A stretch of 64,000 bases of DNA from Tubulanus polymorphus. Lineage: Eukaryota; Animalia; Nemertea. Made by a program: the position numbers and the translations under genes. The notes beneath the pieces are model-generated. The model did not search any database. It was given only the letters and a program-made list of their open reading frames with translations, and was not told the origin of the DNA. Shown piece after piece: positions 401 to 46,623 of the stretch (positions within the stretch are counted from its first letter, which is position 1; each line of letters opens with the position of its first letter). Location: the NCBI RefSeq assembly GCF_964204645.1, contig NC_134027.1, positions 14,292,485 through 14,356,484 on the forward strand, read 5' to 3'.

Positions 401-410
401 AGTCATAGAA

Positions 411-578: not shown

Positions 579-643
579 AAGTCGATAAACACTTCAAGCG
601 ACACAGCGAACGATCTCCTTTCCCCCACAGCGAACGCTTAACG

Positions 644-13700: not shown

Positions 13701-16700
13701 ACAAAACCAAAATGGTGAATTGTCGCGGGCGACAAAACCAAAATGGTGAATTGTCGCGGGCAACAAAACCAAAATAATGAATTGTCGCGGGCGATAAAAC
13801 CAATATAATGAATTGTCGCAAGCGATAAAACCAAAATAATGAATTGTCGCGGGTGACAAAACCAAAATGGTGAATTGTATCGGGCGACAAAACCAAAATG
13901 GTGAATTATCGCGGGCGACAAAACCAAAATGGTGAATTGTCGCGGGCGACAAAACCAAAATAATGAATTGTCGCTGGCGATAAAACCAAAATGGTGAATT
14001 ATCGCGGGCGACAAAACCAAAATGGTGAATTGTCGCGGGCGACAAAACCAAAATAATGAATTGTCGCTGGCGATAAAACCAAAATGGTGAATTATCGCGG
14101 GCGACAAAACCAAAATGGTGAATTGTCGCAGGCGACAAAACCAAATGGTGAATTGTCGCGGGCGACAAAACCAAAATAATGAATTTTCGCGGGCGACAAA
14201 ACCAAAATATTGAATTGTCGCGGTCGACAAAACCAAAATAATGAATTGTCGCGGGCAATAAAACCAAAATAATTAATTATTGCGGGCGACAAAACCAGAC
14301 TAATGAATTGTCGCGGGCGATTAAACCAAAATAATTAATTGTCGCGGGCCACAAAACCAAAATATTGAATTGTCGCGGGCGACGAAACCAAAAAAAAATT
14401 GTCGCGGGCGCCTCAAACAAAATATAAAACCAAAATAATGAATTGTCGCTGGAGATAAAACCAAAGTAATGAATTGTCGCAGGCGACAAAACCAAAATAT
14501 TGAATTGTCGCGGGCGACAAAACCAGACTAATGAATTGTGGCGGGCGACAAAACCAAAATAATGAATTGTCGCGGGCGATAAAACCAAAATAATGAATTG
14601 TCGCCAGCGATAAAACCAAAATAATGAATTGTCGCGGGTGACAAAACCAAAATGGTGAATTGTCTCGGGCGACAAAACCAAAATGGTGAATTATCGCGGG
14701 CGACAAAACCAAAATGGTGAATTGTCGCGGGCGACAAAACCAAAATGGTGAATTGTCGCGGGCAACAAAACCAAAATAATGAATTGTCGCGGGCGATAAA
14801 ACCAATATAATGAATTGTCGCAAGCGATAAAACCAAAATAATGAATTGTCGCGGGTGACAAAACCAAAATGGTGAATTGTATCGGGCGACAAAACCAAAA
14901 TGGTGAATTATCGCGGGCGACAAAACCAAAATGGTGAATTGTCGCGGGCGACAAAACCAAAATAATGAATTGTCGCTGGCGATAAAACCAAAATGGTGAA
15001 TTGTCGCGGGCGACAAAACCAAAATAATGAATTGTCGCTGGCGATAAAACCAAAATGGTGAATTATCGCGGGCGACAAAACCAAAATGGTGAATTGTCGC
15101 GGGCGACAAAACCAAAATAATGAATTGTCGCTGGCGATAAAACCAAAATGGTGAATTATCGCGGGCGACAAAACCAAAATGGTGAATTGTCGCAGGCGAC
15201 AAAACCAAATGGTGAATTGTCGCGGGCGACAAAACCAAAATAATGAATTGTCTCGGGCGATAAAACCAAAATAATGAATTGTCGCAAGCGATAAAACCAA
15301 AATAATGAATTGTCGCGGGTGACAAAACCAAAATGGTGAATTGTATCGGGCGACAAAACCAAAATGGTGAATTATCGCGGGCGACAAAACAAAAATGGTG
15401 AATTGTCGCGGGCAACAAAACCAAAATAATGAATTGTCGCGGGCGACAAAACCAAAAAGAAAAATTGTCGCGGGCAACAAAACCAAAATAATGAATTGTC
15501 GCGGGCGACAAAACCAAAAAGAAAAATTGTCGCGGTCGACAAAACCAAAATAATGAATTGTCGCTGGTGATAAAACCAAAGTAGTGAATTGTCGTGGGCG
15601 ATAAAACCAAAATATTGAATTTTCGCGGGCGACAAAACCAAAATATTGAATTGTCGCGGTCGACAAAACCAAAATAATGAATTGTCGCTGGCGATAAAAC
15701 CAAAGTAGTGAATTGTCGCGGGCGATAAAACCAAAATATTGAATTGTCGCGGGCGATCAAACCAAAATAATGAATTGTCGCGGGCGACAAAACCAAAATA
15801 TTGAATTTTCGCGGGCGACAAAACCAAAATATTGAATTGTCGCGGTCGACAAAACCAAAATAATGAATTGTCGCGGGCAATAAAACCAAAATAATGAATT
15901 ATTGCGGGCGACAAAACCAGACTAATGAATTGTCACGGGCGATTAAACCAAAATAATGAATTGTCGCGGGCCACAAAACCAAAATATTGAATTGTCGCGG
16001 GCGACGAAACCAAAAAAAAATTGTCGCGGGCGCCTCAAACAAAATATAAAACCAAAATAATGAATTGTCGCTGGCGACAAAACCAAAAAAAGAATTGTCA
16101 CGGGCGATAAAACCAAAATAATGAATTGTCGCTGGAGATAAAACCAAAGTAATGAATTGTCGCAGGCGACAAAACCAAAATATTGAATTGTCGCGGGCGA
16201 CAAAACCAAAATAATGAATTGTCGCGGGCGATAAAACAAATATAATGAATTGTCGCAAGCGATAAAACCAAAATAATGAATTGTCGCGGGTGACAAAACC
16301 AAAATGGTGAATTGTATCGGGCGACAAAACCAAAATGGTGAATTATCGCGGGCGACAAAACCAAAATGGTGAATTGTCGCGGGCGACAAAACCAAAATGG
16401 TGAATTGTCGCTGGCGATAAAACCAAAATGGTGAATTATCGCGGGCGACAAAACCAAAATGGTGAATTATCGCGGGCGACAAAACCAGAATAATGAATTG
16501 TCGCTGGCGATAAAACCAAAATGGTGAATTATCGCGGGCGACAAAACCAAAATGGTGAATTGTCGCGGGCGACAAAACCAAAATGGTGAATTGTCGCGGG
16601 CGACAAATCCAAAATAATGATTCGTCGCGGGCGATAAAACCAAAATAATGAATTGTCGCAAGCGATAAAACCAAAATAATGAATTGTCGCGGGTGACAAA

Positions 16701-16815
16701 ACCAAAATGGTGAATTGTATCGGGCGACAAAACCAAAATGGTGAATTGTATCGGGCGACAAAACCAAAATGGTGAATTGTATCGGGCGACAAAACCAAAA
16801 TGGTGAATTATCGCG
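1728..16815 (+). repeat. 31-bp tandem satellite (~15 kb), consensus AAACCAAAATAATGAATTGTCGCGGGCGACA
   Basis: Continuous tandem units with recurring variants (TGGTGAAT, TATTGAAT, GTAGTGAAT). Internal palindrome TTGTCGC-gg-GCGACAA. Confidence 0.98.
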
Positions 16816-17213
16816 AATGCTTTGGTTTTTCGAACGCGTTTTCCGGTTGTTATACGTCTACTTCGTTTACGACCTTTTATTGATTTTGGGTTTGAGGTAG
16901 ATGGTCTTTTTAAGCTTCGTTTGATAATGCGACCCATTGTTTCGATGCCACGATCTTTGATGGCTGTCGCGATATTCTTACCGCCTACCACATCGCTGGC
17001 TACGTGTAAACCAGTTCTCAGTAAATGAGGAACCGCTTGCTTGGCCATATTTTTTAGTAGTGGAATAGCTGGACGAGCCAACCCGCCCAAGACTGATGCA
17101 AATCCAGCACCGCCTTGTACGGGGGATGCCGTGTACACGTCAATACCCGAACCGCATTGGTTCATGTAATATTTACAACAAGCATCCCGATCGATTTCGC
17201 AGAGAGCCCTCAT
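16816..17213 (-). CDS. Polinton basic core-like protein (PW-like), C-terminus truncated by satellite
   Basis: YYMNQCGSG...QGGAGFASVLGGLARPAIPLL motif followed by an Arg/Lys-rich tail. Runs into satellite at 16815. Confidence 0.7.
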
Positions 17214-18124
17214 AGCAATAAATTCTTCTTTTTGAAATGCAGAACCAGGTTAACTTTGCCCTTTCTGAAAACGGGGATTCTTCCGGATTCGGTCCTAATA
17301 AAGACTTCTATAGTTTGAAAATTCCGTCTTTGTAGCGGAAAATATTGTAACTTGGTAAATTCTCGACCAACAATTTTACCAAAATTTCTCGGATTCAAAT
17401 CGATCAGACGTAAGAGATTTGCGCTTTGATGTCCGACCAGCTGTGGTTCGATAACATCTGTATATACCATCAAATTATGATAATCGACGTTCTGCGGGTT
17501 GCAGTGACCTCGATGTATTTGTAAACTGTTTTACTATCGGATGAATCTGACAGTACAGGACCGTGTATTTTAGAACCTTGACGACGAACTGCGGGTTGCA
17601 GTGACCTCGATGTATTTGTAAACTGTTTTACTATCGGATGAATCTGACAGTACAGGACCGTGTATTTTAGAACCTTGACGACGATCTGATATATCTTCGT
17701 TAATCGGTATATTTTCTTTAAAACCCAAGATCCACGCAATATCGTTCGTAAAAGTTATTGAACAGTCGTCATAAAATCGGATACTAACTTTATGACTTAG
17801 TTCATCGAATGCAAGAACTATCTTATCGTCGTACCATTTGTTTAACTCTGCCTGTATAGCGACAATTAATTGGTTAATTGTCAAATAGCGACCCGTGGGT
17901 ATATCGAGATAATGAGTTCCGTGCTCAGACGACGTACATTGAAATCTTCCATTGTTCACGTTATTGAAATCAGCCATAAAGTTTATTTGATGTAAAGCGC
18001 AAAACCATTTGCCTTGAAGTGAAATCGGTGTTCGTAATCGGACTTTAAAACTATGTCGCGTATTATCGGGATAAATATCAGTGCTAGCATCGCTTTTGAG
18101 ATACACGTAAAAATCCTGACTCAT
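17210..18124 (-). pseudogene. Minor capsid protein (penton), interrupted by tandem duplication
   Basis: N-terminal DFYVYLKSDAS..YPDNT..SFKVRL..W.CAL and C-terminal MVYTDVIEPQLVG...LLR...QYFPL...IEV.I...LHF. The two halves are in the same frame, separated by a duplicated segment carrying stops. Confidence 0.8.
17492..17684. repeat. Perfect ~96-bp tandem duplication (period 97) within penton gene
   Basis: 17492-17587 = 17589-17684. Confidence 0.9.
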
Positions 18125-19203
18125 GGTAATTTCTTGATATCTCGAGCGTTCACCCAAGAATTGAATTTATCGGGATAGTTATACCACTTTACCAAGTATT
18201 GTTTTCGAGCGCCTTTACCTCGAGTTTTAATTATCGACTCGATCTTATACGTTTCATCCTTTTTATTGAATTTTATCAACTCGTAACCATAAAACACGCC
18301 ATCTATTGTTACGTCTTGTAAATCTTTAATCTTGTATACAGGTGGTTCACGCATAATTCTTTTCGTAACGACAAACAACTCAGTACTCCAACCGGGTAAA
18401 TAGCCTTTTTGGAATTGACCTTTGAGTTCGCTTATTCGAACAGTGTCGCCAACGCGAAACTTAAAATTCACGCGTTTTTTACTTCGGATTGTACCGTATA
18501 GATTCTTGAAAACTTTGTGCGCGTTTAACTCGTTGACATCGTTTGGAGCCATTTTTATACTACGATGAAACGATTTATTGTATGACGCTACTATATCTTT
18601 AAGCAAATCGATATATCTGTATGAATTTCTATGCGAAAATATCTTATACATTTTCGATTTTAAAGTACGTATCCATCTTTCGATTAAAGCGCATTTCACT
18701 TCGTTTTTACTTTGGAAAAAACGTACGCCCTCGTTTTTCAGATACGCCTGCGTTTTTGAACCGACAAATTCTGTGCCTGAATCCGATTGAATAACGCTAG
18801 GTTTCCTAATCTTGAAAATCTTTTTAAAACCATCCACAACGGTAGAATTAAATTTATTTTTTAACGGTATAGCGAACGCGTATCTAGACAATACATCGAT
18901 AGCCGTCAATAGAAATTTGTAACCGTCGTTGTGTTTCGAAATATTCGAAACGTCGCACAAGTCGACCTGAAATTGCTCGTTCACTCGATAGGCTATAGTT
19001 TTGTTTCTCGGAAATCTCTTTCGCACTTTGGCGTGTAAAGTGTGAACTTCTTGTTCGGTTAACCAGTCTCGTATCTCACGTAAAGAGATATTTTTGTTTT
19101 CTTTTTTACAAATCCGTAGTAATGTATTTGCGTTTGAAAAACTTCCTTCTTTGTCGACGCCATAATATTGATTCGCCAGGAACCTTTTCTGTTCGGCTTT
19201 CAT
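18121..19203 (-). CDS. Retroviral-like (rve, DDE) integrase with C-terminal chromodomain
   Basis: FQVDL...LLTAIDVLSRYA...IQSDSGTEF...IERWIRTLK; chromodomain YKIESII...QYLVKWYNYPDKFNSWV. ORF intact. Confidence 0.95.
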   Translation of the reverse strand: MKAEQKRFLANQYYGVDKEGSFSNANTLLRICKKENKNISLREIRDWLTEQEVHTLHAKVRKRFPRNKTIAYRVNEQFQVDLCDVSNISKHNDGYKFLLTAIDVLSRYAFAIPLKNKFNSTVVDGFKKIFKIRKPSVIQSDSGTEFVGSKTQAYLKNEGVRFFQSKNEVKCALIERWIRTLKSKMYKIFSHRNSYRYIDLLKDIVASYNKSFHRSIKMAPNDVNELNAHKVFKNLYGTIRSKKRVNFKFRVGDTVRISELKGQFQKGYLPGWSTELFVVTKRIMREPPVYKIKDLQDVTIDGVFYGYELIKFNKKDETYKIESIIKTRGKGARKQYLVKWYNYPDKFNSWVNARDIKKLP

Positions 19204-19321
19204 CAATTACAGTTTTACTACCACAACACGTACTTAATACGCAATTAACTCTATTGAAACGACACTCGAAATTCGGCTCCTCCTGCTTTAAACAACAACA
19301 AAACAACTTTCGCCAATTCAT
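19106..19321 (-). CDS. Small Cys-rich hypothetical protein
   Basis: ATG ORF on the same strand as its neighbours (MNWRKLFCCCL...). Overlaps the integrase start; no recognised family. Confidence 0.3.
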   Translation of the reverse strand: MNWRKLFCCCLKQEEPNFECRFNRVNCVLSTCCGSKTVIDESRTEKVPGESILWRRQRRKFFKRKYITTDL

Positions 19322-19376
19322 CTTTTCTCATAATTTTATTTACACTTAAAAAAACAATATGCTTTTAATGACTTTT

Positions 19377-19901
19377 TTATTTGGAACAAAGAATGGTATA
19401 GAATAGAACTTCTTCATAGGCTTCCCGTAGATCGTAGAGTTTTCTGGCACCCGACAATATTAAAGTACCGCCGTTATGTACTATACATTTTATCCCGTTT
19501 TCGCACTTGTAAACAAAACCGGGAAATATTTCGGGATTGTAGTCACCGGGAACTGTTTTGGAAAGTTCTATTAATTCCACACGTCGATCAGTTTTTACAA
19601 CTCCAGTCATAGTTTGTATTTTGAAATTAGTCAAGCTCACAATATAACCCATCTTTTGCAACAAACGAGCGAATTGTCTTGTACTACGCCGACTGTTAAA
19701 TTCGCTTTTACATCCGGTCACGACCATTTTACCATTTACGAACAATAGACAATTACCCTGTATACTTCTGTGTTTCCATATTAATCCACTAAACTTTCGG
19801 GGGTCATAGACGACATTACACAATTTTCCTGCAATATCGGCTAGATTTAGACGGCAATTCAGATTACCCGTAGACGCAACGTTTACAACTTCAATCATCA
19901 T
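19377..19901 (-). CDS. TATA-box-binding protein (TBP)-like, intronless, 174 aa
   Basis: Both TBP core repeats are recognisable. VNVASTGNLNCRLNL..YDPRKFSGLI..LLFVNGKMVVTGCKSE..SR...RQFARLLQKMGY..NFKIQ..YNPEIFPGFVY..G.LILSGAR..EAYE aligns by eye to TBP NIVSTVNLGCKLDL..YNPKRF..IFSSGKMVCTGAKSE..RKYARVVQKLGF..DFKIQ..YEPELFPGLIY. Confidence 0.92.
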   Translation of the reverse strand: MMIEVVNVASTGNLNCRLNLADIAGKLCNVVYDPRKFSGLIWKHRSIQGNCLLFVNGKMVVTGCKSEFNSRRSTRQFARLLQKMGYIVSLTNFKIQTMTGVVKTDRRVELIELSKTVPGDYNPEIFPGFVYKCENGIKCIVHNGGTLILSGARKLYDLREAYEEVLFYTILCSK

Positions 19902-19921
19902 TAATGTACCAACTCGATCGC

Positions 19922-20188
19922 AAATGAGACCCACATATCCAATCGACAATTAATATCGATTTATCTTGACCCAAAAATGAAACCCGTACATCCAATTAAC
20001 TATTAGTGTTACGTCAACTCGGTCACAGCACGCCGCGATTAACTCTTAATATCGCGTCACAAAATGAAACTGCTATATCCATTCCACTAATGATATCATT
20101 GCAAAACCCACTGACCGTTGACATGCCAAACACGAATAATGAAGCCCGCATATATCATATCAATCCGCCACAAATGAAGCCAGGTCAT
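19922..20188. promoter_or_regulatory. Five dispersed copies of an AAATGARRCC...ATATCCA-like motif upstream of the TBP-like gene
   Basis: Copies start at 19922, 19973, 20061, 20138 and 20172 (the last two are partial). Function is inferred only. Confidence 0.45.
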
Positions 20189-20231
20189 TGGTCAAAGCTT
20201 TTTGACAGTCGCGATTAGGTTTTTCTAGTCG

Positions 20232-20912
20232 TTAAAAGGATAACCAGTTTGTGAAATTCACATTGCCATCACGCACTTCACGCAGTCCGGATCCGCTCTG
20301 ATCATACTTTGGTTTCTTCCTCTTTGGAGACAACGACGTATCTAAATCTACGGTAAGTTCACCTTTGATACTTCTCTTTAACGTTTTATTCGAAATAAAA
20401 CTCAATGGTACGTTCAACTCGTTAAATGCAGATATATATTTATCTAGGCCGATATATTCTTGATCCATTTTAGTTTGTACTAACGACATGTGTAAAATAT
20501 CGTCAATGTTGCTTCCACGAATTAGATTGTCCTTGTAAATCAGTTCGCCTTTATCATTCCATTTCAAAATTCCTGGATTATCTTAAAAAAATGCTAATAG
20601 GGATTTACATTTTTTCCTAAATCTTAACGGTAACCGATCAATAATTTTCTGCGTAGTATATTTGCCCGAGATTTCTTTAATATCTTGTGTCGTTTGGTTA
20701 ATGTCCTTTTCTGTAGACGATTTATGTATTTCTTGCTGCAATAACTGATTATACTTTAAGTATTTGAGATCGTCGGGTATTTTGTTATCCGTTAGAGGGT
20801 TGTAGGTAGCGGGTGTTTCTTTTTCTTGTCCACGTTCTTGACTCGCGATAAAAGCTTGTATCGAGGGTAACATGGAATCGGGTAAAATGATTAACTTTTC
20901 AACGTTCTTCAT
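20232..20912 (-). pseudogene. Conserved Polinton protein with an in-frame premature stop
   Basis: ORFs 20583..20912 and 20232..20567 are in the same frame: LPLRFRKKCKSLLAFF*DNPGILKWNDKGELIYKDNLIRGSNIDD. C-terminal QSGSG motif. Confidence 0.65.
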
Positions 20913-21292
20913 GCTATTGCCTTATCTACTATTCGGTTTGCGGCGTTCGTTAAAACAGACGTCAGTATAGGTTTCAAAAGTGGTAGTAAAATGAATGGCA
21001 GAAATCCACCTTTTTGCGAAATTATTCCTCGTTTATGTTTAATGGCTATCGAATTGTTGGCCAACATGCGTATGTAACGCTTATGTTGTTTCAACACGCG
21101 TTTATCTTTGTCGCTATGTTTTATATTCCCGCCTAAACTGTTTTTGGATATCTCGCATACGCACTTGATTAAGTCTGACGGAGCCGATTCTATCAACGCT
21201 CGACGTTGTTTCTTATTACATTTACCCAACACGTGTAAATGATGTATATATTTTTTCACTCTTTGTAACGAGTTGTTTTTACGCGGCGCCAT
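20909..21292 (-). CDS. Polinton virion protein with adenovirus pX-like QKGG/FLP motif
   Basis: ...LIKCVCEISKN.L.GN...QKGGFLPFILLPLL: putative adenain cleavage site followed by a hydrophobic helix. Confidence 0.7.
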   Translation of the reverse strand: MAPRKNNSLQRVKKYIHHLHVLGKCNKKQRRALIESAPSDLIKCVCEISKNSLGGNIKHSDKDKRVLKQHKRYIRMLANNSIAIKHKRGIISQKGGFLPFILLPLLKPILTSVLTNAANRIVDKAIA

Positions 21293-21330
21293 GGTCTTCT
21301 TTTATTAGTTATTAGTCGAAAATTATACTT

Positions 21331-21981
21331 TTAATGAATTTTCTTTGTTTTGTATATTATATGGTATTTATCGCTAGGAAAAATTCTAGTTCTCAAACGC
21401 CATCTATCATCAGTTTTTGGTTTAAAATCCAGTAAAAGATAACCGTGGGGTTCCATGGTAGCGTCTCTAAAGGCCGCTTCAATTTCGTTTTTCAAACCGG
21501 CTTGTTGAGCGAGAACGCGAACTTGATTTCTATCTCGCGCATTTTTAAAAACGACAATATAATGCGAGTTTAAACTAATCGTTCTAAACTCTTTGCCTTT
21601 CGGGAAAATATTTTGTACAATCGTAATAACGCTGATGTTGCGATGATGGGATCCTCGTGTATACAAAGAAGCTAACGCGTTATTACCCCCTACTTCATTC
21701 ATCAGATCGTCGACTATAATTAATGTACGTTTACTGCCATCTATTTTGTCGTAGAGTTCTCCGGAAAAACCCTCTACAAACAGCACTCCAAACTTTTCCA
21801 ATTCATTGAACATTTCGGGTTGCGCCTCCGCGTAACACCAATATATCTTATCGGGATTTTTTTCGACAAGATTCTCCGTTATAACTTTTTTGACAAACAC
21901 ACTTTTACCGGAACCCGTCGGTCCTGCGACTATCATCGTGAATGGGTGGGATAAGTATCTCGGGCCATTATACTCTGCCAT
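21331..21981 (-). CDS. A32/FtsK-like DNA packaging ATPase
   Basis: Walker A GPTGSGKS, Walker B LIIVDD, RGSHHRNISV..QN motif. Confidence 0.93.
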   Translation of the reverse strand: MAEYNGPRYLSHPFTMIVAGPTGSGKSVFVKKVITENLVEKNPDKIYWCYAEAQPEMFNELEKFGVLFVEGFSGELYDKIDGSKRTLIIVDDLMNEVGGNNALASLYTRGSHHRNISVITIVQNIFPKGKEFRTISLNSHYIVVFKNARDRNQVRVLAQQAGLKNEIEAAFRDATMEPHGYLLLDFKPKTDDRWRLRTRIFPSDKYHIIYKTKKIH

Positions 21982-22080
21982 CTTAGTGTTTTAGTGTTTT
22001 AAGTGTTTTAGCTACGAATGAAAAACACTTTTAATAGAAACAAGGGGGTTGTCAATATTTTAAAAATACAGTACACGCAT

Positions 22081-22355
22081 TTTATAGTTTACTAAATTCT
22101 TTATTTTCACTAAACGAGGTTCTAACAATTTTCAATTTTGAAAAAATGAGGTTTGAACTTTTTTAATAGGAAAATACTATACGGTTTTGACAAAAAATCA
22201 TAAGTTATATTTGAGGTTTAGATTTTTGCGATTTACGCAATTTATAGTTTACTAAATTCTTTATTTTCACTAAACGAGGTTCTAACAATTTTCAATTTTG
22301 AAGAAATGAGGTTTGAACTTTTTTAATGGGAAAATACTATACGGTTTTGACAAAA
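22081..22355. repeat. ~115-bp direct duplication (period 160) in the divergent intergenic region
   Basis: 22081-22195 matches 22241-22355. Confidence 0.85.
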
Positions 22356-22444
22356 TAACATTAGTTAAAAATACGGTTTGACTATTTTTCGATTTTAGAT
22401 ATTCGAGGTTTGAATATGTTTTCATAAACGCTATTTGACTTTTT

Positions 22445-22720
22445 TCACACGTCGATATACGGTCTTTGAATGAGATATTTACGTTCCGGTTGAAGATCAA
22501 TCACGTCTAAACAAAATATAGCGCCAACAATTTTATAAAGGAATCGCTCCGTCATATTTAATTCTTTCAAAACTAGGCATAATCCATCTGGTTCGTCGCA
22601 ATTTACAAAATCTTTGGCTAAACGTTGAATATCTGTTAAATGCTTTTGACCGAGTAACACTTGGTGTATTCGCGTGTAATCCAAAATCGTGAATAATAGC
22701 CTTCGTAATAGTCCGTCCAT
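22445..22720 (-). CDS. Hypothetical protein
   Basis: ATG ORF MDGLLRRLLF... between the ATPase and pPolB genes; no motif recognised. Confidence 0.25.
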   Translation of the reverse strand: MDGLLRRLLFTILDYTRIHQVLLGQKHLTDIQRLAKDFVNCDEPDGLCLVLKELNMTERFLYKIVGAIFCLDVIDLQPERKYLIQRPYIDV

Positions 22721-22812
22721 TGTACTTGATAGTCGACCCATAATTGACTTGTAGACACAGATTAGTCTCTTTTAAAAAATAACACATATTCAATCTTTTT
22801 TTCTCACAGAAA

Positions 22813-25800
22813 ATGTATTCATGCCAATACTGCCCGTTGACCTTTGTCAATGAACTGGGTTTGGAACAACACCAACAACTTCACGTTGGTAAGAAGGGGT
22901 TCAAGTGCTTGAGCTGTTGCAAAGCATTTGCGTGTGCGCGCGATTTAACGCAGCACACGTTTATATGTATGACACCCCAACCGGTTCAACAACAGATGCC
23001 TGTAGCTTCGGTCAATCCGGTAAGTAGCTTACAATCGCTCATTTCATTAATTAATTATTTTAATGTATTCTTAAATACCCGGTTTATTTATTTATTTTTT
23101 TTTTTCAGCAAATATGGGACTGCATAATATGTGGTCTTAACTTTGCTGACCAGCAAACACTGACACGTCATCTGAGTTCCCACTTTGGAACTACCGATGG
23201 TTGGCAATGCGTCACATGTGGTAAGGTGTTTGCGCGCAAAGATAATTTGAAGCGGCACGCTAAAACATGTAAGGGACACGCTGTACAACACGTCGTATCG
23301 CGGTCTGTAGTACCGGATACATCGGAGGCTAAACCGGTAAGTTTTGAAATTATGAGTTACAAAAGAAAGAAAAACAAACAAACAAACAAAAAGACCCGTT
23401 ATTTATATTCTATATATTTGTCTATTGAAGGGGTCCGAGTGCATCAAATGTGGCAAGGTGTTTGGACGCGTAGACAACATGCGCCGACACGTCAAAACGT
23501 GTAAAGGATCCGTTGAACCACCGCGTGTAAACCCTCTACCGCGCGTAAACCCTCCGCGTGTGAACCCACCGCCACATCCTGATTGTCACCCCATTCACCC
23601 CGGGACGTCTAACTCTGTAAGTAATCGAACTCATGAATTGCTAAAAAACTCATTCATCTTTAATATAATCCAGGTATTTTTTCTATTTTCTAGCATTCTT
23701 GCGACATATGCGGTAAAACGCTATCTCGTAAAGATAGCTTGGTAAGGCATATGAGGACGTGTCAGCCTAACAAGTCATCGACCTTACCACGACTGCCACC
23801 ACCACCACCAGCCGTACGGGAGTTTACATGCTCGCGATGTTCGGATTCGTTCCATTCGATCGCCGAGTTAAAACGTCACGGCGAGGTATGCGCTCCACGG
23901 CCCTCAACATCGAAACGCCCTATTGACGATATTGATGATGAGGAAGAAGAAACGTGTTCGAAGCGCCCTCACTTTGAAAACCCCGACGAAATAATACGGG
24001 GCAATATTAAACTGGTCAGGGTAAGTAATCGAATACATCAAAATCGTTTAACATAATGACGAACAAAATGACAAAAAAGAATGTTTCCATTATTTTACAG
24101 AACGGCGTACAACACAGCAAAAAATTCAACATGAAAACTGAGTTGTACAAGGTTACCGTGATACCACATGACGACCCGAATAACGACCAACTCGATGCGC
24201 AGGATACACAAGCCACCGTCCGAAATTACCTAACCGACGTTTTAGCGGCAATTAGTGAAATGCTGGACGCTCGTTCGAGTGACATGATTCGTATATCTAT
24301 CGAGCACGCAGAACTCAATGGAAACATTGAATTTCCATTCGTACCGTTGGACGAACTAACGGTCGAATATATACTCGATAGGTTAATACGTGTTCTACAG
24401 TCGAATGAGGATTTGTCTTTGGATGGATTAATTTTCCATTGTACATTCATTCGAATGCCGCTAGGTGGTGTCCGTCGTAAACGCGTCGAGGTAAATTTTG
24501 AGTCGTTTAGACAAAACAAACGCTGTATTGTCTCGATCGATAATGACGATGATTTGTGTCTCGCTAGGTCGTTGGTGGTGGCAAAGGCGCGTGCGGATAA
24601 TGACCCCCGTTATGATACCATACGTAAATGCGACCGACCGACGCAGAAGGATGCGGCGATTGCCCTACACACGAATGCCGGTGTGCCCCAAGGCAAGTGT
24701 GGATTGCGCGAGTTGGACGTATTTTCGAAACAATTATCCGAATACTACATAATTGTTGTAACGGGGGATCATATCGCGTATCACATTTTATACGAGAACA
24801 ATCGCAATGTGTTAGACGCTCAGGGTGTAAATGCCAAAAAACTTATATTATTATATACAGATGGCCATTTCGATGTAATTACATCGATGGCTTCATTTAC
24901 CTGTCGCGTATACTATTGCTATAATTGTAAAAAGGGGTATACGAATACAGAACGACATCGCTGTACCGATAAATGTAGACTTTGCTTTGGGGATTGCGTA
25001 GAACAACGGGGAAATTATTTGTGTATAAAATGCAATATCTATTTTAAATCGGAAGCGTGTTTAGCTAGACACTGCAGACCAAGAGCAGACGGGGTAAGCG
25101 TATGCGATTCGAGAGCGCGATGTTTACAATGCGGGTCTATTGTATCTAGAAAGAAACTTGATCCTAAATCTCACGACTGCGGTCAAAAATACTGCAGTTC
25201 TTGTAAAGAGCAAAAGCCTAGCGGCCATCTTTGCTACATCGGGGTCGCCAAAAGTCAGGATCACGTGGTTTCTGAGGAACAGGGTAACCCTCATACACTA
25301 ATTAACGCGTATTTGGATGCCGATAAGGCTGGCGATGAGCTAAAATATAGAAAGTTCATCGCATTCGATTTCGAAACAACGACTGTGGAATCGAACCACG
25401 TTGTAGTATTGGGCATAGCGCATAGAATATGTCAAATGTGTAAATGGTCGAAACGGACCCCTGACTCGGTTTGCGATTATTGCGGTAAGCATGAACACGT
25501 GTTTAAAACGGACTCTGAATTCTGCGAGTGGTTGTTTACGGAAGAGAATAGGGGCGCCATTGTTTTCGCGCATAATTTTCAATCCTTTGACGGTTACTTT
25601 ATTCTTCAATATTTGGTGTCACAAGGTATATTACCAGATATTGTACCAAACGGCGGGAAAATAATGACTATGACCGTCACACATTTGGACATAAAGTTTT
25701 TGGACACGTTGAATTTTCTACCAATGAAACTCGCTAAATTACCCGAAACACTAGGTATTCCCGAGTTGAAAAAGGGCTATTTTCCGTATAAATTCTGCAC

Positions 25801-27898
25801 TCGCGAGAATATTGATTACGTCGGACCTATTCCCGATGTAGAATATTACAATCCCGACGGTCTAAGTTCGAGCGAAAGGTCTGATTTAATAAAGTGGCAT
25901 AGCGATCGGCAGTCGGAACATTTCATTTTTGATATGCAACGCGAGTTGGTCGAATACTGTCGTTCAGATGTGGATATTCTGATGCAATCGGTCGTAAATT
26001 TTCAACATCAATTCTTTGCTCTTTCGGCTGTTGATCCATTTCGTAATAGCATCACTATAGCATCGGCGTGCAATGTGGCGTTACGAACAAACTTTTTGAA
26101 ACCGACAACAATAGGGCTAATCCCTCCGGGCGGTTATAAACCTAATGCAAAATTTTCCAAGATGGCAATTAACTGGTTGAAATGGGTATCCACAACGAAT
26201 GACATACGAGTCCAACACGCGTTGAACGGCGGCGAAGTATCGATTGACCGCTTTAAAGTAGACGGTTATCACGCCGAATCCAATACCGTGTACGAATTTC
26301 ACGGTTGTTTATATCACGGATGCCCTAAGTGTTTCAAAAATCCGGATTTGATATCTCCGGTACGACCCGATCGTAAATTCGGTGAATTATATCAGGCCAC
26401 ATTAGAAAAAACATCTAAAATTAGAGCTTTGGGTTACAATTTGGTAGAATTTTGGGAACACGAATATCGTGACTTGGTTAAAGAAAACCACGCGTTTGCA
26501 GATTTTGTCAAGAAATCTGATATTCTCGATCCATTGCAACCACGTGACGCATTTTTTGGAGGTCGTACGAACGCGATAAAAATTTATCGCAAAGCCGAGG
26601 GTGAAGAAAAAATCAAATACATCGACATATGCTCGTTATACCCGTACGTCAACAGTCGTTGCAGTTATCCAATCGGTCATCCGACTATTGTGACTGAAAA
26701 TTTCCGCGATATTGAAAATTATTACGGGTTGATAAAGTGTAAGGTTTTACCGCCTCGGGGTTTATATCTACCAGTGCTCCCATATAGATCGGGTGGGAAA
26801 TTGACTTTCCCATTGTGTCGAACGTGCGCTAATGAAAGCAATCAGCGCGAAAAGTGTTATCACTCGGATGATGAACGTTCGATAACGGGTACCTGGGTAA
26901 CTTTAGAGGTACAAAAAGCAGTGAAACTTGGTTATAAGTTATTAGATATATATGAAATTTGGGATTGGGAAACTAACGAAACGGGTTTATTCGAGGATTA
27001 TATAGGAAAATTCCTCAAAGTTAAAACTGAAGCTAGTGGCTGGCCGGCTAAAGATATGTCTCGCGAACAGAAGGATAAATTCATTTCCGATTATTTAGAA
27101 AGAGAGGGTATCCAACTCGAAGAAGATAAGATTAAGAAAGCCAAGGGGATGCGAACAGTCGCGAAATTATGTTTAAATTCGATGTGGGGTAAACTCGGTC
27201 AAAACGAAAATAAGACGACGGCCAAATATATTTCGGACCCCGGGGAATTATACAGAATGCTTTTGGATGAAACTTTAGAGATAAGCGATCTGTTGTTGTG
27301 TAATGACGAGGTGCTAAGAGTGCATTACAAAAAACGCGAAGAATTTGTTGAATCGACAAACAAAACCAGCGTCGCTTTAGCAGCTTTCACAACGGCTCAT
27401 GCGCGGCTTATTCTTTATAGTTATATGGAGAAATTAGGGGAACGAACCCTATACACGGATACCGACTCTATCATTTATAGCGTGAAACCTGGTGAATGGG
27501 ATCCGCCAACCGGCAATTTTTTGGGTGATATGACCGATGAATTGGTTGATAAATACGGGGAGGGGTCGTTTATTTCAGAATTTGTTTCGGCTGGACCCAA
27601 AAATTATGCATATCGGGTATTCAGTCCTAGAGATAATGAATTCTCGACTGAATGTAAGGTTAAAGGGATCAATTTGAATTTTCGAAACAAGCAAATTGTA
27701 AACTTTGGTTCCATGGTGGATATAATTGTCGAAGAAAAGTACGACCATCTTTACATATTAAATCCCGACAAAATCAATAGAAAGATCAAGGACTGCTCTA
27801 TTTACAATAGAGACGAACGTAAAATATATCGCGCAGTTTATACTAAACGAGCTTTCGACCCCGCAGATCGGTATAACACGCTTCCGTACGGATATTAA
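22813..27898 (+). CDS. Spliced zinc-finger + protein-primed DNA polymerase B (~1581 aa). Exons 22813-23019, 23109-23336, 23431-23616, 23694-24020, 24101-27898
   Basis: Four GTAAGT...AG introns, all phase 0, join seven C2H2/C2HC fingers in frame to pPolB. pPolB motifs: OTU-like CLAR...GHFD, exonuclease AFDFET/HNFQSFDG, VSR-like VDGY..YEFHGC.YHGC, polymerase DICSLYP, KLCLNSMWGK, YTDTDS. Confidence 0.88.
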
Positions 27899-28235
27899 TG
27901 TAACAAATAGTGAAAAGACAAAAATATAGTTACCTATTTATTTATTTATTCTATTTATTGCGTATTTATTGTTAATAAATGTTTTTTAATTGTTGACATT
28001 AATTTGTTTTACATTTGTTTTTTTGTGGTTTACTTCGTTTCACCCGTCCTCGGGATTTCTTGGAAAAGCGCCATCTAGGATTTACTTTTCCCCCTCCTCA
28101 CACACACACACGCATAGGATCTCGTAATAGTGGCGCCATCTAGGGAATTCATCAGACTACTAAATCGTTTTGGAATTTACATAGTCAATGATTTGAATTT
28201 TGCCGCCAAAAAGAAAATTCGTAAAGGAAAAAAGA

Positions 28236-28403
28236 AAAAAATCTTAAGGAAAATATCTTAAGGAAAAAAAAAAATCTTAAGGAAAAAAAAAAAAAATCTT
28301 AAGAAAAATATCTCGAAGAAAAAAATCTTAAGAAAAAAATCTTGAGAAAAAAATCTTAAGAAAAAAATCATAAGAAAAAAATCTTAAGAAAAATATCTTA
28401 AGA
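28236..28403. repeat. ~15-bp minisatellite (AAAAAAATCTTAAG)n
   Basis: About ten tandem units with a variable A-run. Confidence 0.9.
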
Positions 28404-28406
28404 AAT

Positions 28407-28492
28407 CCCGCCATCTTGGATGACGTCACTTCCGGCCGCCATCTTGGATGACGTCACTTCCGGTATGACGTCACTTCCGGTGTGACGTCATC
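28407..28492. promoter_or_regulatory. Tandem CRE/ATF-ETS-YY1 motif cluster
   Basis: 4x TGACGTCA, 3x CACTTCCGG, 2x CGCCATCTT. Confidence 0.7.
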
Positions 28493-28759
28493 CTCCTCAC
28501 TCCTCCTCCCTCACTCCACTGTGGCCCCATAGTGACATCATGTAACTACTGGGCGAGTCGCGATTGCTACTATCATCCGGTGTTATCTTTCAGTAAGTAA
28601 TTTTAAGTTTAAAATAGGACGGAGAGTGCATAGGTATAATCTACGCGGAGCGAATGCGTGTTATATTGCTATCAGAATTCTACATTTCAATTAGAAGCAG
28701 TTAGATGTCGAATCTGATAGAAGATGAATTTTATGTGCGAAAAAAAAGTGGAAAATATG

Positions 28760-29520: not shown

Positions 29521-32500
29521 ATGGAAGCAAATAAGTACTACTGTCCAACATGTAATATAAATATAGATAAATCCCAAAAATCAAGACACAATAAAACTAA
29601 AACACATTTAGAGAATAAATTGAAATTAGAATATGAAGATGATATATTAGAAACTTAATTAGATGAATTAAAGAATGAAAAAGAAACATACAAACGTGAT
29701 ACATGTAATCAATCATTCAGTGATAAAAGATATTATAATGAACATTTAAAATCTAAAAGCCATATTAGAAATAAGAATAATGATATTTTAGGTGAAGATT
29801 ATTTTGATAATGACAATGATATAAAACATAAGACAATTAAAAGAATAAGAAATAAATTAAACAATAAAAGACCATACATGGAAGATGTAAGAAATTATAT
29901 TAATTCATTAGATAATAAAAAAGATATAGAGATAACCGAAGCATTTAAAAGTGATATTGGTCCAGCAGCTATCGAGTTTAAATTTCATAAAGGAAAAACA
30001 TTAGAAGAAAATAAAAAACATTTAGAAAATATGAAAAATATTATAAAAATAATTACCGATGTTGAATACCCTAAAATTAGTAAAATTGTATCTTCTAAAG
30101 TAAAGTTTATAAAATCTGAAGATAAACCAATATATAATATAAATTCTCATTCACAACATATTATATCTAAAAAACATATAGATGAAAAATTAGATAAATG
30201 TTATAATGAAGTAAAAACTAAAATAGAAGAGAAATATTTTGAAGGATCTGGTTTAATATTTGATGAAATAATATTTATGACTTAACATGTTTATAACACA
30301 AAATATAATAAGTTAACTAAATCGAAACCAATAGATGAAAATAATGTATCATATTATAAAGAACCAGATATTGAAGCATCGAGTTATATCAAATTACCAT
30401 TTAAAACTAATGCTGTTATAAATGTACAAAATTTTGATGATAAATGTTTTCTATGGTCTATAATTAGTTGCTTACATCCTGCAACTTATAATATTTGTAG
30501 ATTAACTCATTATAAACCATTTGAAAATAATTATAAGATAGATAAGTATCCTGTTAGAATTAAAAACATCCCATAAATAGAAAGAGATAATAATATAAAG
30601 ATAAATGTATTTGATTTACTCAAATTACCAAATACAAAAGGTAACAATATCAAACATTATACATTAGAACCTTTATACCTATCAAAAGATTATGATTCAA
30701 ACGATGTTATAGATATATTATATTTTGAGAATCATTATATGTGGATTAAACAAATATATTTATTCTTTAGAACAGAAAGTGATCACCATAATAAAATATA
30801 TCTATGTAGAAAATGTTTACATAAATTCAGTAATGAAAGTACATTATTAGATCATAAACAATTATGTGAAAATCATGATTATTGTAAATTAGTTTTACCA
30901 AATGAAAAAGATAAAATATTAGAATTCAAAAAATATTATTACAAAAACAAAGTACCATTTGTAATATATGGAGATTTTGAATCATTAAATAAAGAATTAA
31001 CTGATCAAGATAGAAAAGAAATATATTATAACAGAAAGAAATTAAATTCTAATGAAAATGATTTTTCAGATGAACCACCAAAAACAAATACTATTAAAAA
31101 GATTCATCAATCAGCTGCTGCTTTCGGGTTATATATTAAATCTGATTATCCAGAACTAATTGAAAGTGAATATTATCATTACAGAAATGAAAATGTTATC
31201 AATCATTTTTGTGACTTATTAAATGAATATGAAATAAGATTTAGTAAATTATTGAATACAAATAAAGAAATTATAATGACAGAAGATAAAGAAGAATTTG
31301 TGTTTGCAGGTAAATGTTATTATTGTGAAAAGATATTTAATTATAAAGATAAAAAAGTAAGAGATCATGACCATTTGAATGGTAAATTTAGAGGTGCAGC
31401 GCATGAGGCTTGCAATTTACAAGCCAAAAAAGTAAATTTTGTCCCCATTATATTTCACAATTTATCGGGGTATGACGCGCATTTATTCATTAAGCAACTG
31501 TGTCATAAAATAGAAGAAATTAATAATGAAATAGAAAGATTAAATTCAAATAGATCAAAAGATAAAATACCAACTTATAAATTTAAAATGTTAGCTAGAA
31601 CAACTGAGAATTATATATCATTTCAATTTGGTTGCCTAAGATTTATAGATTCATATAGATTTTTAAATAGTTCATTAGATTACTTATCAAAATCATTAGT
31701 TGATGATGAATTAAAAATATTGAAACAACACTATCCAAATAATGATGATTTTAAATTAATGAGATATAAAGGCGCAATTCCATATTCTTTCTATAAAAAT
31801 CATAATGATTTTAACATAACTGAATTATTAAAAGAACAATTCTATGATGAATTAAAAAATGAATATGTTAAAGATGAAGTATATAATAGAACATTGAATA
31901 TTTGGAATCATTTCAAAATAGAAAATCATGGGCAATTAGTAGATTCATATCTAAAATCAGATGTATTATTATTAACTGATATATTCGAAAGGTTTAGATA
32001 TGTAAACCTAAAATATTTCAATATTGATCCTTGTCATTGTTATTCTAGCCCAGGTTTAACAGGGGATTGTGGATTAAAATTTACAAATACAAAAATGGAT
32101 TTGTTAACAAATACAGATCAATTATTATTATTTGAAAAATCTATAAGAGGAGGAGTTTCAGGTGTATTAGGTGATAGATATTTCAATGTAAATGATAACC
32201 CTGGATATAAGTTATTATAGATAGATGCAAATAATTTGTATGGTTGGGCAATGATGGAACCAAAACCTTATGGAGTATTTGAAATAAGTGAAGTTTTACA
32301 ACATGAAAATAATGATAAATTTGATTGGAAGAAAAGAATTCTAGATATTGCAGATGATTCAGATACTGGTTACTTCTTTGTTGTAGATTTAGAATATCCT
32401 GAACATATTAAATTTAAATCAAGAAATCTAGCTTACTGCCCCGAACATAAAACTGTAACTCATGAAGAATTATAAAATTATCAAAAAAGAATTAAACCCG

Positions 32501-33554
32501 AAAATCATATTCATACAGAAAAGTTAATGGTAACTCAAGAAGATAAATATAATAATGTAGTTCATTATAGAATGTTGAAGTTTTATCTAAAACAAGGAAT
32601 GATCCTAAAAAAGTACATAGATATATTTCATTTAGTCAATCTAAATGGTTAGAAAAATATATAGATTTTAACACCAAACAGAGAACTGAAGCTAAAACTG
32701 ATTTCGAGAAAGATTTCTTCAAGTTAATGAATAATGCATTCTATGGTAAGACTTGTGAAAACATTAGAAATAGAAATGATTTTGAGTTAGTAAGTAATGG
32801 TAAAAGAATTAGACATTTACAAACATACCCTAAATTTATTGGTAACAGAATATATGATGAAAATTTAGCCGCAGTTAAAATGAGAACAAGTATGAAGTTC
32901 AATAAACCTATTTATAATGGTGCTTCAGTTTTTGAATTATCAAAATTACTAATGTATAAATTTTACTATAACGTATTACAACCTCATTTTGGGGAAAAAC
33001 ATATAGAAATATTATATTTTGATACAGATTCTTACATATTAAAGATAAAAACTAATGACATAACTGATGGTTTAAAAACATTAAAACATCATTTTGATTT
33101 CAGTAATTATCCTAAAGATCATGAATTGTTTAGCAATGATAATAAAAAAGTTCCTGGTAAATTCAAAGATGAATTAGGTGGTGAAGAAATGATTGAATTC
33201 ATCGGTATTAGATCTAAAATGTATTCATATAAAACTAAAACTCATGAATCAAAGAAATTGAAAGGAATTACTAAAAGTGTAGTAGAAAAGAATATTCATT
33301 TCAAAGATTACATCAATTGTAACATCAATGAAGAAGTTAGAAAACATAAGATGAGATGTTTAAGATCTGAAAATCATGAAATGTTTATTGAAGAGATAGA
33401 GAAGATAAGTTTGAATCCTTTCGATGATAAAAGATATATTTTAGATGATGGAATTGATACAGTTGCTTATGGTTGTAATTTAGATGAATACTTACAATTT
33501 AAAAGAGAAGAAACAAAAGAGAACGAGATAATGAAAAGAATTCTAACGTGTTAA
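29521..33554 (+). pseudogene. pPolB with N-terminal Zn fingers, OTU-like and endonuclease VII domains; several stops/frameshifts
   Basis: YYCPTC...RHNKTKTH; NVQN.DDKCFLW; YGDFES; KVRDHDHLNGKFRGAAHEACN (EndoVII); HNLSGYD; *IDANNLYGWAM; KLMNNAFYGK; YFDTDS. Confidence 0.9.
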
Positions 33555-33583
33555 TCAAATTTTAATAAAAATATGTATTATAA

Positions 33584-33946
33584 ATGGAGAGTAAACAAAC
33601 ACACAGTGAGAACAACAAATTATTTCTAGATAGAATAAAAGATACTTCAAATGTCAAATCAGTAGATTATAAATTTAAGAAGTTAAAAGAATTAATAATC
33701 AATAAGAAATATCTAATTACAAATATTGATACAGTTACTAACAAATATGGAGATAAATTAGTTATACACTTAGAATATGAAGGATTAAAAGGAAATACAT
33801 ATAAATTCAGAACATATTTACCAGACAGATTTCATAGATTATCAAGTGAAGATTTAGAAGAATTATGTTCTGGAGATTTCTATTTCGTATATAAGGGTAA
33901 GAATGAGAAAGGGCACCATGAAATAGATTTCGAATTAGAAATGTAA
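33584..33946 (+). CDS. Conserved small Polinton protein (possible OB-fold ssDNA-binding)
   Basis: Intact TAAATG ORF after pPolB; homologue at 56366..56716. The fold is inferred from the FKKL..L...Y.I...V.NKYG...YLP.RF pattern. Confidence 0.6.
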   Translation: MESKQTHSENNKLFLDRIKDTSNVKSVDYKFKKLKELIINKKYLITNIDTVTNKYGDKLVIHLEYEGLKGNTYKFRTYLPDRFHRLSSEDLEELCSGDFYFVYKGKNEKGHHEIDFELEM

Positions 33947-33951
33947 AATAA

Positions 33952-34707
33952 ATGGTAGAATTAAAAGAATACAGAATATTTGTTGATTCAAGAAAACTTA
34001 CAAATTATAAATCACATAATTTACTAGTACAATTAGATAGAGAATTTAAGAATTGTGTAGATTTAAAATTAGTAAATATAAGTTTATGTAATTCTTTTCA
34101 TAATATATCGGATAAAAGTCTTGATCATTTAGCTTTTAAAATTTATGTTAGAAATTTGAATAAATGGTTTCATCTTTATCTAAAACCAGGATTATATAAT
34201 TTAGAAACATTAGCGCAAGAAATTAATAAAAGAGCTCGTTTAGAAATGGGCTCAGCTGCTCGATTTGAAATTAAATTTATCAAAAGTGATAGTTCGAATA
34301 AAATAAGAATAAAGTTAACTAATGAACAACATAGATTTCTAGTAAGAAAACCTTTAGCTAAACTGTTTGGAATTCTTCCGGATAGACATTATTCAAGTAT
34401 TGAAACTTATACAAATATAATGACTTTTACACACTTTTATATTTATTGCAAATTAATTAATCCTACAAAAACATTTGAAGCAACTAAAGATATAACTTGT
34501 AATTCTAGTATATTAAATATTTTACCATTGAAGAATGTTAAACAATTTGGAACGCAAATAAATTATAATTCAGCTGAGTGTGATTTTAAACCTTGTATTC
34601 CTCAATTTAATAATTTTAAATTAGAAATAAGAAATCATAATGGATATTTAATTGATTTGAATAACTTTCCTGTAATTTATGAATTAATTATAAGATGTAA
34701 AGAGTAA
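33952..34707 (+). CDS. Minor capsid protein (penton)
   Basis: IFVDSR...NSFHNIS...PGLYN...FYIYCKLI...ILNILP...IRNHNG.LIDLNN. Confidence 0.75.
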   Translation: MVELKEYRIFVDSRKLTNYKSHNLLVQLDREFKNCVDLKLVNISLCNSFHNISDKSLDHLAFKIYVRNLNKWFHLYLKPGLYNLETLAQEINKRARLEMGSAARFEIKFIKSDSSNKIRIKLTNEQHRFLVRKPLAKLFGILPDRHYSSIETYTNIMTFTHFYIYCKLINPTKTFEATKDITCNSSILNILPLKNVKQFGTQINYNSAECDFKPCIPQFNNFKLEIRNHNGYLIDLNNFPVIYELIIRCKE

Positions 34708-34723
34708 TTTTTTCACTATATAA

Positions 34724-35080
34724 ATGAATATAACTGTTGGACCGAGTATATGTTTTGGGTTTGATTTTAAACGTGAGTAAGAAATGAAATTTAACATTAC
34801 TGATGTAATTATACATATTAGAAATATTGCATTTTCTAATGAAACAACATTTGAGTATGAAAAAACAATAGATAAAGAAACTTTAAATGTAGAAAAGATT
34901 ACTAATTTAATTAGAGAATCTTTAAGATTTTATGAATTAGATGAAGATTTTATCATCGATGATATTAAAAAAATAATAATTGAAATATATACAAATGAAA
35001 CTAGTAATGAAATAAATGTTGATTTAATCATAAATAAGTTAACTAAATATTTTGAAGAAAGTAATTTTTTTGATAAATAA
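34724..35080 (+). pseudogene. Hypothetical acidic protein with in-frame stop
   Basis: Intact homologue at 55282..55638. Confidence 0.65.
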
Positions 35081-35302
35081 ATGAGTGATAATAAGTGGAT
35101 AATAACTGGATTATATAATGGCGCATTACTATCAGTTGGAACTGTTGGTTATTCAATGGTATTAAAAAAAGTATTCAAAATGGGAAGTGTTAATGTTGAT
35201 AGATTTGATATAAATGATATTTTAAAATTAACATTAGCAGTTACTTTATCTAATTTAACTATTGATTATTTGGAAAAACAAAAATATATTCCTCCCATAT
35301 AA
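35081..35302 (+). CDS. Small hydrophobic protein, 73 aa
   Basis: Nearly identical to 55060..55281; TAAATG start. Confidence 0.7.
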   Translation: MSDNKWIITGLYNGALLSVGTVGYSMVLKKVFKMGSVNVDRFDINDILKLTLAVTLSNLTIDYLEKQKYIPPI

Positions 35303-35326
35303 ATGCGTAATTATTTTACTAAATAA

Positions 35327-35750
35327 ATGGCTTCTGCAGTTATAACTATTATAGGATCGGCAATTGTTAACGCTTTAGCATTTACTGGTGGCGGTTATTT
35401 ATTTAAGCATATTGATAAAAAATGGATCATTAACAGAACAAAAAAGGCATAACTTAGCATTAGAGAAATATAATAAAGCAGCAGAAGAATACAGAGAAAA
35501 GAGGCAAAACTATATGGATTACATCAATAAAGAATTATATGATCAGAAGATTTCACATAGAGATTTTCAATCAGTCGATGATGCAATGAGTTTATATAAC
35601 GCGGTAACAAATAAAGAAAAATTACATCTATACAAACCTAAATTATCAGATTATTATACCCCAAGTAAAGAACAACAGAAATATGAAATAATTTGCATTT
35701 TAGGTGGAACAGTTATTGTTATATTTGTTGCTTATAAGTTTACTAATTAG
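35327..35750 (+). pseudogene. Membrane/coiled-coil protein (NALAFTGG...KRHNLALE), frameshifted
   Basis: Intact homologue at 54613..55035. Confidence 0.7.
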
Positions 35751-35770
35751 TAATTTTTTTTGCTAAATAA

Positions 35771-36205: not shown

Positions 36206-36221
36206 TTTTTTAATTATATAA

Positions 36222-46617: not shown

Positions 46618-46623
46618 CTTATT

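Follow-up and report, generated by a model that had tools for sequence, protein, structure and literature searches.

A predicted seven-finger leader, split by four introns, on the protein-primed polymerase of a Polinton/Maverick element from the ribbon worm Tubulanus polymorphus

In this study, we analysed a stretch of 64,000 nucleotides from the ribbon worm Tubulanus polymorphus (NCBI RefSeq assembly GCF_964204645.1, contig NC_134027.1, positions 14,292,485 to 14,356,484; hereafter the window), and found that it contains the right-hand 11.7 kb (about 16800 to 28550) of a Polinton/Maverick element. The gene for the protein-primed family B polymerase (pPolB) of this element appears to be divided by four spliceosomal introns, and its first four exons encode seven zinc fingers ahead of the terminal protein. 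Judging from the DNA signals, it is very probable that the gene is transcribed in the nucleus and that the host spliceosome removes the four introns. Furthermore, fingers 4-6 are predicted, with fair confidence, to bind DNA. The reading that we favour, at a probability of roughly 45%, is that the terminal protein keeps the fingers, which read a GAG-rich origin box to position priming.

The gene model consists of five phase-0 exons (207, 228, 186, 327, and 3798 nt), which are free of stops at offset 0 only and add up to 4746 nt, that is, 1581 amino acids and a stop codon. The original prediction had placed four phase-0 introns, each running from GTAAGT to AG, at the positions given in Table 1, with a frame of about 1581 amino acids, and translation of the exons reproduced it exactly. 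In 17000-28550, GTAAGT occurs five times on the plus strand and never on the minus strand, and four of the five are the intron donors. At least four copies in 22813-24100 were reached by a fraction of only 0.0003 of 20,000 shuffles. The fifth copy (20353) was rejected as a donor; it lies within an antisense coding frame and is probably there by chance. The GC content is 0.21-0.26 in the introns and 0.42-0.56 in the exons. Only eight strong polypyrimidine acceptors were found on the plus strand of the element, and they include three of the four intron acceptors, that of intron 2 being weaker. The nearby AGs that keep the frame number 2 of 2, 3 of 5, 1 of 6, and 4 of 5 for introns 1-4, respectively. 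Keeping the frame is by itself a weak filter for intron calls; among the frame-keeping AGs, the chosen acceptor has the best pyrimidine tract for each intron. In addition, since a strong acceptor ends at 22809, an intron in the 5′ untranslated region (UTR) upstream of the start codon is likely. Reading through intron 4 leads to a stop after 11 codons, and this stop overlaps the 24056 start codon (24054-24058). Such a stop/start overlap is a pattern used in termination-reinitiation; here it may be due to chance in AT-rich DNA.

The gene was compared with two predicted RefSeq gene models, P0001 (a degraded sister copy) and P0003 (a Tubulanus polymorphus relative), both taken as proteins. P0001 bears on introns 1 and 2 (Table 1), and P0003 on the exon 4/5 junction, which joins the fingers to the polymerase. 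The match of exon 4 to P0003 ends at residue 151, and residue 4 of exon 5 matches residue 155. The alignment is colinear across the two exons, and thus junction 4 needs no gap. Exon 4 scores 28 against P0003, and the intron frame scores -6. In an AlphaFold model of P0003 (46 sequences), one strand (residues 147-157, pLDDT 81-90) spans junction 4, and we read it as the first strand of the terminal-protein domain outlined in the accessible text of 10.1101/2024.03.18.585575. The fold of P0003 also matches phi29 polymerase and OTU domains (OTU E 0.003). Furthermore, in one sister lineage (6 of 32-34 reads), the DNA from the 24056 ATG to exon 5 is longer by two insertions, one of 1 base and one of 4. 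These five extra bases would shift an unspliced frame unless compensated, and would leave the spliced frame untouched. Within exon 5, OTU motifs lie at 24548 and 24860, and the catalytic Cys153 and His256 (exon 5 numbering) are invariant in 7 of 7 aligned sequences, as expected for Alpha-class adintovirus PolB. In 38 of 42 relatives, the fingers are followed, ahead of the terminal protein, by a basic motif resembling a bipartite nuclear localization signal (NLS); the count was made with a loose pattern and no control. The view that a spliced seven-finger array stands at the terminal-protein end of pPolB is supported by this anatomy, by the colinearity with P0003, and by the relatives described below.

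All seven fingers have the spacing C-x2-C-x12-H-x3-H/C. Fingers 1 and 3 are the only C2H2 fingers, and fingers 2, 4, 5, 6, and 7 are C2HC. The Pfam finger matches of exons 2 and 4 are above the cut-off and those of exons 1 and 3 below it, and finger 7 has a weak UBZ match (E 0.032, below the cut-off). The solved structures closest to the fingers are DNA-binding fingers. The recognition helices of fingers 4, 5, and 6 are RKDNLKR, RVDNMRR, and RKDSLVR, and the accessible part of PMC5260015 tabulates the similar RSDNLVR and RRDNLNR for GAG.

The comparison of the fingers suggests that exon copying, which had been proposed, likely enlarged the array from three to seven fingers. The DNA of fingers 4 and 5 is 73% identical, with proportions of synonymous (pS) and nonsynonymous (pN) differences of 0.56 and 0.19, and pS exceeds pN in all 21 finger pairs. 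In P0003, fingers 1-2 are the counterpart of both exon 1 and exon 2, and fingers 2-3 are that of exon 4. This growth appears to have tripled a conserved helix of RxDNLxR type. Meanwhile, among the best-supported exon variants listed for the copies, 12 of 14 are third-position synonymous changes, including 3 of 4 in the finger exons. A sequence shared by introns 3 and 4 had been offered as a sign of the duplication. The 13 nt that they share at their start are real; their further likeness is marginal (8 of 500 shuffles, with six pairs tested). In addition, the exon ends preceding introns 3 and 4 are unrelated, so simple exon copying does not account for intron 4. Introner-like introns were not found either: beyond these 13 nt, the four introns contain no repeated introner-like sequence, their pairwise likeness is marginal at best, and the self-search of the window gave no intron repeats.

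Finger leaders were found in many relatives of this polymerase. With a bait containing the fingers, fingers preceded the OTU motif in 43 of 69 relatives: three in 34 of them, two in 4, and one in 5. Among them are the three-finger proteins P0004, P0143-P0149, and P0176 of bivalve-associated Polintons, with the labels Mya, Ruditapes, and Mytilus. From the sources of the entries, many of the leaders in ENA, Logan, and JGI appear to be single continuous frames. With a finger-free bait there were 147 matches, and 10 of the 45 with enough upstream sequence have fingers; a first search gave fingers in 3 of 120 among the matches listed. The middle finger of 32 three-finger relatives is conserved at its base-contact positions (Asn+3 in 32, Arg-1 in 29, and Arg+6 in 23). 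A FastTree tree was built from the 91 proteins with at least 60 residues upstream, the others being dropped. In this tree, the window polymerase groups with P0003 only (support 100), outside a large clade in which 43 of 44 members carry fingers. The finger label needs seven changes on the tree, and at least five are forced by well-supported branches. Repeated gain or loss of the leader is therefore likely on these sequences; a finger-less label may be an error for genes whose finger exons are separated by splicing. When the N-terminus of P0003 was used as a query, 28 of 29 matches were host finger proteins and the remaining one was P0003 itself. By these comparisons, the finger leader is a recurrent lineage trait, and the fusion is not special to the window element, contrary to what the original prediction had assumed.

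Contigs were also scanned for the DNA of relatives. Nothing was found in the viral contigs, and the metagenome contigs gave one internal fragment of a relative. The genome contigs gave 16 Polinton polymerase loci; an upstream finger was present in L016 only, in degraded form, and the finger-exon layout in none of the 16. These loci (L002-L017) lie in metagenome-assembled genomes labelled as prokaryotic and are probably host DNA binned with symbionts.

The candidate target of the fingers is a GAG/GTG-rich box close to the end of the element (Table 1). It has 7 GAG in 30 nt, which is the maximum of the element; elsewhere there are at most 3, and 0 of 200 shuffles reached this count. Beside the box, 28408-28490 is packed with copies of TGACGTCA, ACTTCCGG, and CCGCCATCTT, which we take to be CRE-, ETS-, and YY1-like, respectively, and this region resembles a housekeeping promoter. 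The motifs at 19922-20188 had been suggested earlier as the finger target. They include several copies of AAATGA-x-CC directly upstream of the TBP-like gene and are likely promoter elements. They are not GAG-dense, and we rejected them as the preferred target, the terminal box being the better candidate.

According to a published hypothesis (10.1101/2024.03.18.585575, accessible text), the OTU cut lies between the terminal protein and the OTU domain. With the cut at that place, the DNA-linked terminal protein would keep the fingers, and their release by the OTU-like domain, which had been proposed for this gene, is not favoured. Since the conserved GAG-type helix, the terminal GAG box, and fingers left on the terminal protein all come together here, we favour origin recognition. 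In this mechanism, the host spliceosome would remove the four introns to give a single protein of 1581 residues, with the predicted order fingers, NLS, terminal protein, OTU, and polymerase. After the OTU cut, the fingers kept on the primer protein would bind the GAG box near the element's own end and position the priming reaction. The finger-terminal protein would then carry, built into itself, the role that host factors play at the ends of adenovirus. With symmetric phase-0 exons, an array of three fingers could have been extended to seven, and the finger number could be varied by the skipping of exons.

It should be noted that several points weigh against origin recognition by a spliced finger array. 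The splicing rests on DNA signals and on the predicted gene models P0001 and P0003, and a 1-base insertion in exon 4 (7 of 36 reads) would shift the frame unless compensated. Reads of one possible RNA run (X7) gave no alignment to the gene, which speaks neither for nor against splicing. When junction 4 was assessed on distant homologs, exon 4 scored above the intron frame in 33 of 76, which is no better than chance. In addition, with five of seven fingers C2HC and most linkers long and non-canonical, the array is unlike a classical tandem DNA reader. The GAG box was picked after the fact, and it is a low-complexity purine run that was compared with single-base shuffles. The box is absent from the finger-bearing L016, whose end may be lacking, and the finger-less L012 has 6 GAG near AGTAGT. 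Furthermore, the window holds the right-hand part of the element only, and the left end lies outside.

Other functions of the leader have to be weighed as well. With the gene spliced as modelled, the fingers could regulate transcription of the element at its terminal promoter, perhaps together with the TBP-like protein. The regulator would be a cleaved N-terminal piece or a product of intron-4 retention (327 residues, with seven fingers and the NLS-like motif), whose stop overlaps the 24056 ATG. The repeated CRE-, ETS-, and YY1-like motifs, as we label them, lie beside the GAG box and would suit such a regulator. So would the TBP-like protein encoded by the element and the stand-alone finger genes (Ziftr) that the accessible text of 10.1101/2024.03.25.586562 reports for some adintoviruses. 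However, a retention switch is absent from many relatives, whose predicted frame runs uninterrupted from the fingers to the polymerase. Moreover, the insertions of the sister lineage disturb the stop/start overlap, and the published OTU cut would keep the fingers on the terminal protein. We regard a regulator as doubtful. About equally doubtful is the idea that the fingers, kept on the terminal protein, attach to host DNA or chromatin, either as a nuclear tether of the capped linear genome or to steer integration. Host sites for GAG-type helices would be many, the basic NLS-like motif adjoins the fingers, and the integrase carries a chromodomain; the seven changes of the leader on the tree would fit a tether that is helpful but optional. 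However, a helix conserved throughout a large clade points to a single fixed target.

Protein binding is much less probable than either of these functions. Under this explanation, the C2HC fingers would bind proteins and not DNA, for example ubiquitin chains that are passed to the OTU domain. The five C2HC fingers, the weak UBZ match of finger 7, and the OTU domain in the same protein would agree with it, but the 12-residue spacing is classical and the closest solved relatives are DNA-binding fingers. In addition, the relatives carry C2H2 fingers with conserved base-contact positions. Slightly less probable still, the finger exons could belong to a separate or decaying captured gene, with the polymerase starting unspliced at 24056. 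An intact frame of 1280 codons does run from 24056, the exon 4/5 junction is known from DNA and predicted models only, and the distant homologs did not discriminate the two N-termini. On the other hand, exon 4 contributes to the predicted first strand of the terminal protein in a gapless match to P0003 that far outscores the intron frame, dozens of relatives have fused leaders, and the sister copies carry frame-shifting insertions downstream of the 24056 ATG. Origin recognition by fingers kept on the terminal protein remains the reading that we prefer.

Table 1. Positions of the pPolB exons and introns and of other features of the element in the window
Feature	Position	Strand	Remark
Rve integrase with chromodomain	18121..19203	-	Pfam match; same element
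TBP-like gene	19377..19901	-	PF00352 E 2.1e-32; same element
A32/FtsK-type packaging ATPase	21331..21981	-	Profile match; same element
Likely 5′-UTR intron acceptor: polypyrimidine tract and CAG, 3 bases before ATG	22786..22809	+	Strong acceptor
Exon 1: start codon, finger 1 (C2H2), finger 2 (C2HC)	22813..23019	+	Matches residues 2-49 of P0003
Intron 1, 89 nt, phase 0	23020..23108	+	RefSeq model P0001 of sister copy implies the same joint
Exon 2: finger 3 (C2H2), finger 4 (C2HC, helix RKDNLKR)	23109..23336	+	PF00096 E 1.5e-10
Intron 2, 94 nt, phase 0, weakest acceptor	23337..23430	+	Same acceptor implied by P0001
Exon 3: finger 5 (C2HC, helix RVDNMRR), proline-rich linker	23431..23616	+	Open frame
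Intron 3, 77 nt, phase 0	23617..23693	+	Sole frame-keeping AG among 6 nearby
Exon 4: finger 6 (RKDSLVR), finger 7, bipartite-NLS-like basic pair, putative first half of first terminal-protein strand	23694..24020	+	
Intron 4, 80 nt, phase 0	24021..24100	+	Overlapping stop/start 24054-24058; sister copies carry insertions in this intron
Exon 5: terminal-protein domain, OTU-like domain, Cys-rich region, Exo I-III, Pol A-C	24101..27898	+	PF03175 E 1e-49
Terminal-region motifs: four TGACGTCA, three ACTTCCGG, two CCGCCATCTT	28408..28490	.	Motif count
GAG/GTG-rich box, candidate finger target	28493..28522	-	29-58 nt inside element end
Element end, 5′-AGTAGT	28545..28550	-	Read breakpoint into high-copy repeat at 28551

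By its gene content, the element is a Polinton/Maverick of the Alpha-adintovirus type. The protein-primed polymerase has intact Exo and Pol motifs, as in Polintons/Mavericks; the integrase, which matches PF00665 and PF00385, is that of Polintons and adintoviruses; and the packaging ATPase matches PF04665, as in Polintons. Major capsid, penton, and protease genes were not identified in 16800-28550, the element being truncated on the left at about 16800 by the 31-bp satellite of another repeat. On the right, there is a single AGTAGT end with a DNA-read breakpoint at 28551, and no second arm of the terminal inverted repeat was found within the window. Diverged sister copies are many: 7750 of 12,632 aligned DNA reads (run X5) are less than 95% identical to the element. 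The closest database proteins are RefSeq models labelled Tubulanus polymorphus, with 88%, 65%, and 52% identity.

The TBP-like gene is intact, and it has counterparts in the Polinton loci L005 and L010; TBP-like genes are also mentioned for MELD viruses in the accessible text of PMC8502044. A conserved-looking Polinton gene on the minus strand (20232-20912) is broken at 20583-20585 by a stop in its frame. The element is thus partly decayed in this copy, though pPolB, integrase, and ATPase are intact. In addition, there are tandem duplications inside the element at 22075-22395 (about 160 nt, 91%) and 17485-17688 (107 nt, 97%).

Outside the element, another repeat is present in two copies of opposite orientation (about 900-16800 and 37050-43000; 96% over 830 nt). 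This repeat carries the 31-bp satellite, which has grown to 15 kb, and it disrupts the Polinton gene starting at 17213. Window positions 1-1720 had no match to the Polinton loci compared. Meanwhile, 29521-36941 and 44996-63000 hold Polintons of a second family, which are AT-rich and degraded. At 29521, the polymerase region opens with finger-like Cys/His motifs of another type, which suggests that this family had a separate finger leader.

The accessible texts of PMC8502044 and 10.1101/697771 define Alpha PolB and mention TBP-like genes, and they contain no finger leader. Likewise, nothing on a fingered, intron-split layout was found in the accessible portions of PMC10748475, PMC11131425, and PMC3671162. 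Our literature search, which was made without subscription papers, Repbase, and supplements, found no description of a C2H2 leader or of introns in a Polinton pPolB. Therefore, what is new, as far as the gene prediction goes, is the expanded and intron-split finger leader on a Polinton polymerase, and it contradicts the description of these genes as intronless. The shorter finger leader itself is common to many database relatives, as their predicted proteins indicate.

These observations bear on how Polintons recognize their ends and start replication, and with a readable finger code and a matching box at the terminus, binding can be put to a direct experiment. A core replication gene with introns implies transcription and splicing in the host nucleus, unlike cytoplasmic virophage-like lifestyles. 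In addition, annotation based on open reading frames truncates such polymerases, and N-terminal modules may have been missed across the family. The gene also offers a compact example of a virus-like genome that has gained introns and multiplied exons. We may speculate further, as an idea that is rather unlikely to hold in full, that several Polinton lineages independently added a finger array to the terminal protein and so came to find the origin without host factors. The ribbon-worm leader would have been made modular by host-type introns, its finger number and specificity being tunable by exon copying and alternative splicing, and such leaders would be largely hidden because viral gene callers miss spliced exons.

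The closest known system is Alpha-class adintovirus PolB, which combines OTU with pfam03175 in the accessible texts of PMC8502044 and 10.1101/2024.03.18.585575 and shares the order terminal protein, OTU, exonuclease, and polymerase. Alpha-class adintoviruses also have the rve integrase with chromodomain, the packaging ATPase, and the AGTAGT end in common with the window element; however, the window gene adds seven fingers of classical spacing and four predicted spliceosomal introns. The bivalve-associated Polinton pPolBs resemble it in having a finger leader, an RxDNLxR-type helix, and a basic motif, followed by the terminal protein. However, they have three C2H2 fingers with short linkers in apparently continuous frames, whereas the window gene has seven mostly C2HC fingers on four exons, and they form a clade separate from the window polymerase and P0003. 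We found no paper describing these three-finger proteins.

As for the introns, intronless core open reading frames are a descriptive trait of Polintons. The accessible text of PMC8097293 reports no introns in intact vertebrate Mavericks, and that of 10.1101/2022.07.12.499685 describes nematode elements with intronless core genes and introns in cargo only. Dinoflagellate proviruses carry introners (10.1101/2025.03.18.643946, accessible text). The nematode and dinoflagellate cases share with the window element the presence of spliceosomal introns in a Polinton-like element. However, they concern mobile introns or host-derived cargo, whereas the four GT-AG introns of the window pPolB are ordinary short introns that appear to divide a core replication gene into functional modules. 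Finally, the proposed system resembles that of adenovirus, in which protein-primed replication starts from a terminal repeat with factor sites; according to the accessible text of PMC5717082, the inverted terminal repeat has sites for NFI, NFIII/Oct-1, Sp1, and ATF. Adenovirus borrows host factors and encodes pTP separately, whereas in the ribbon-worm element the terminal protein itself would carry the fused sequence reader.

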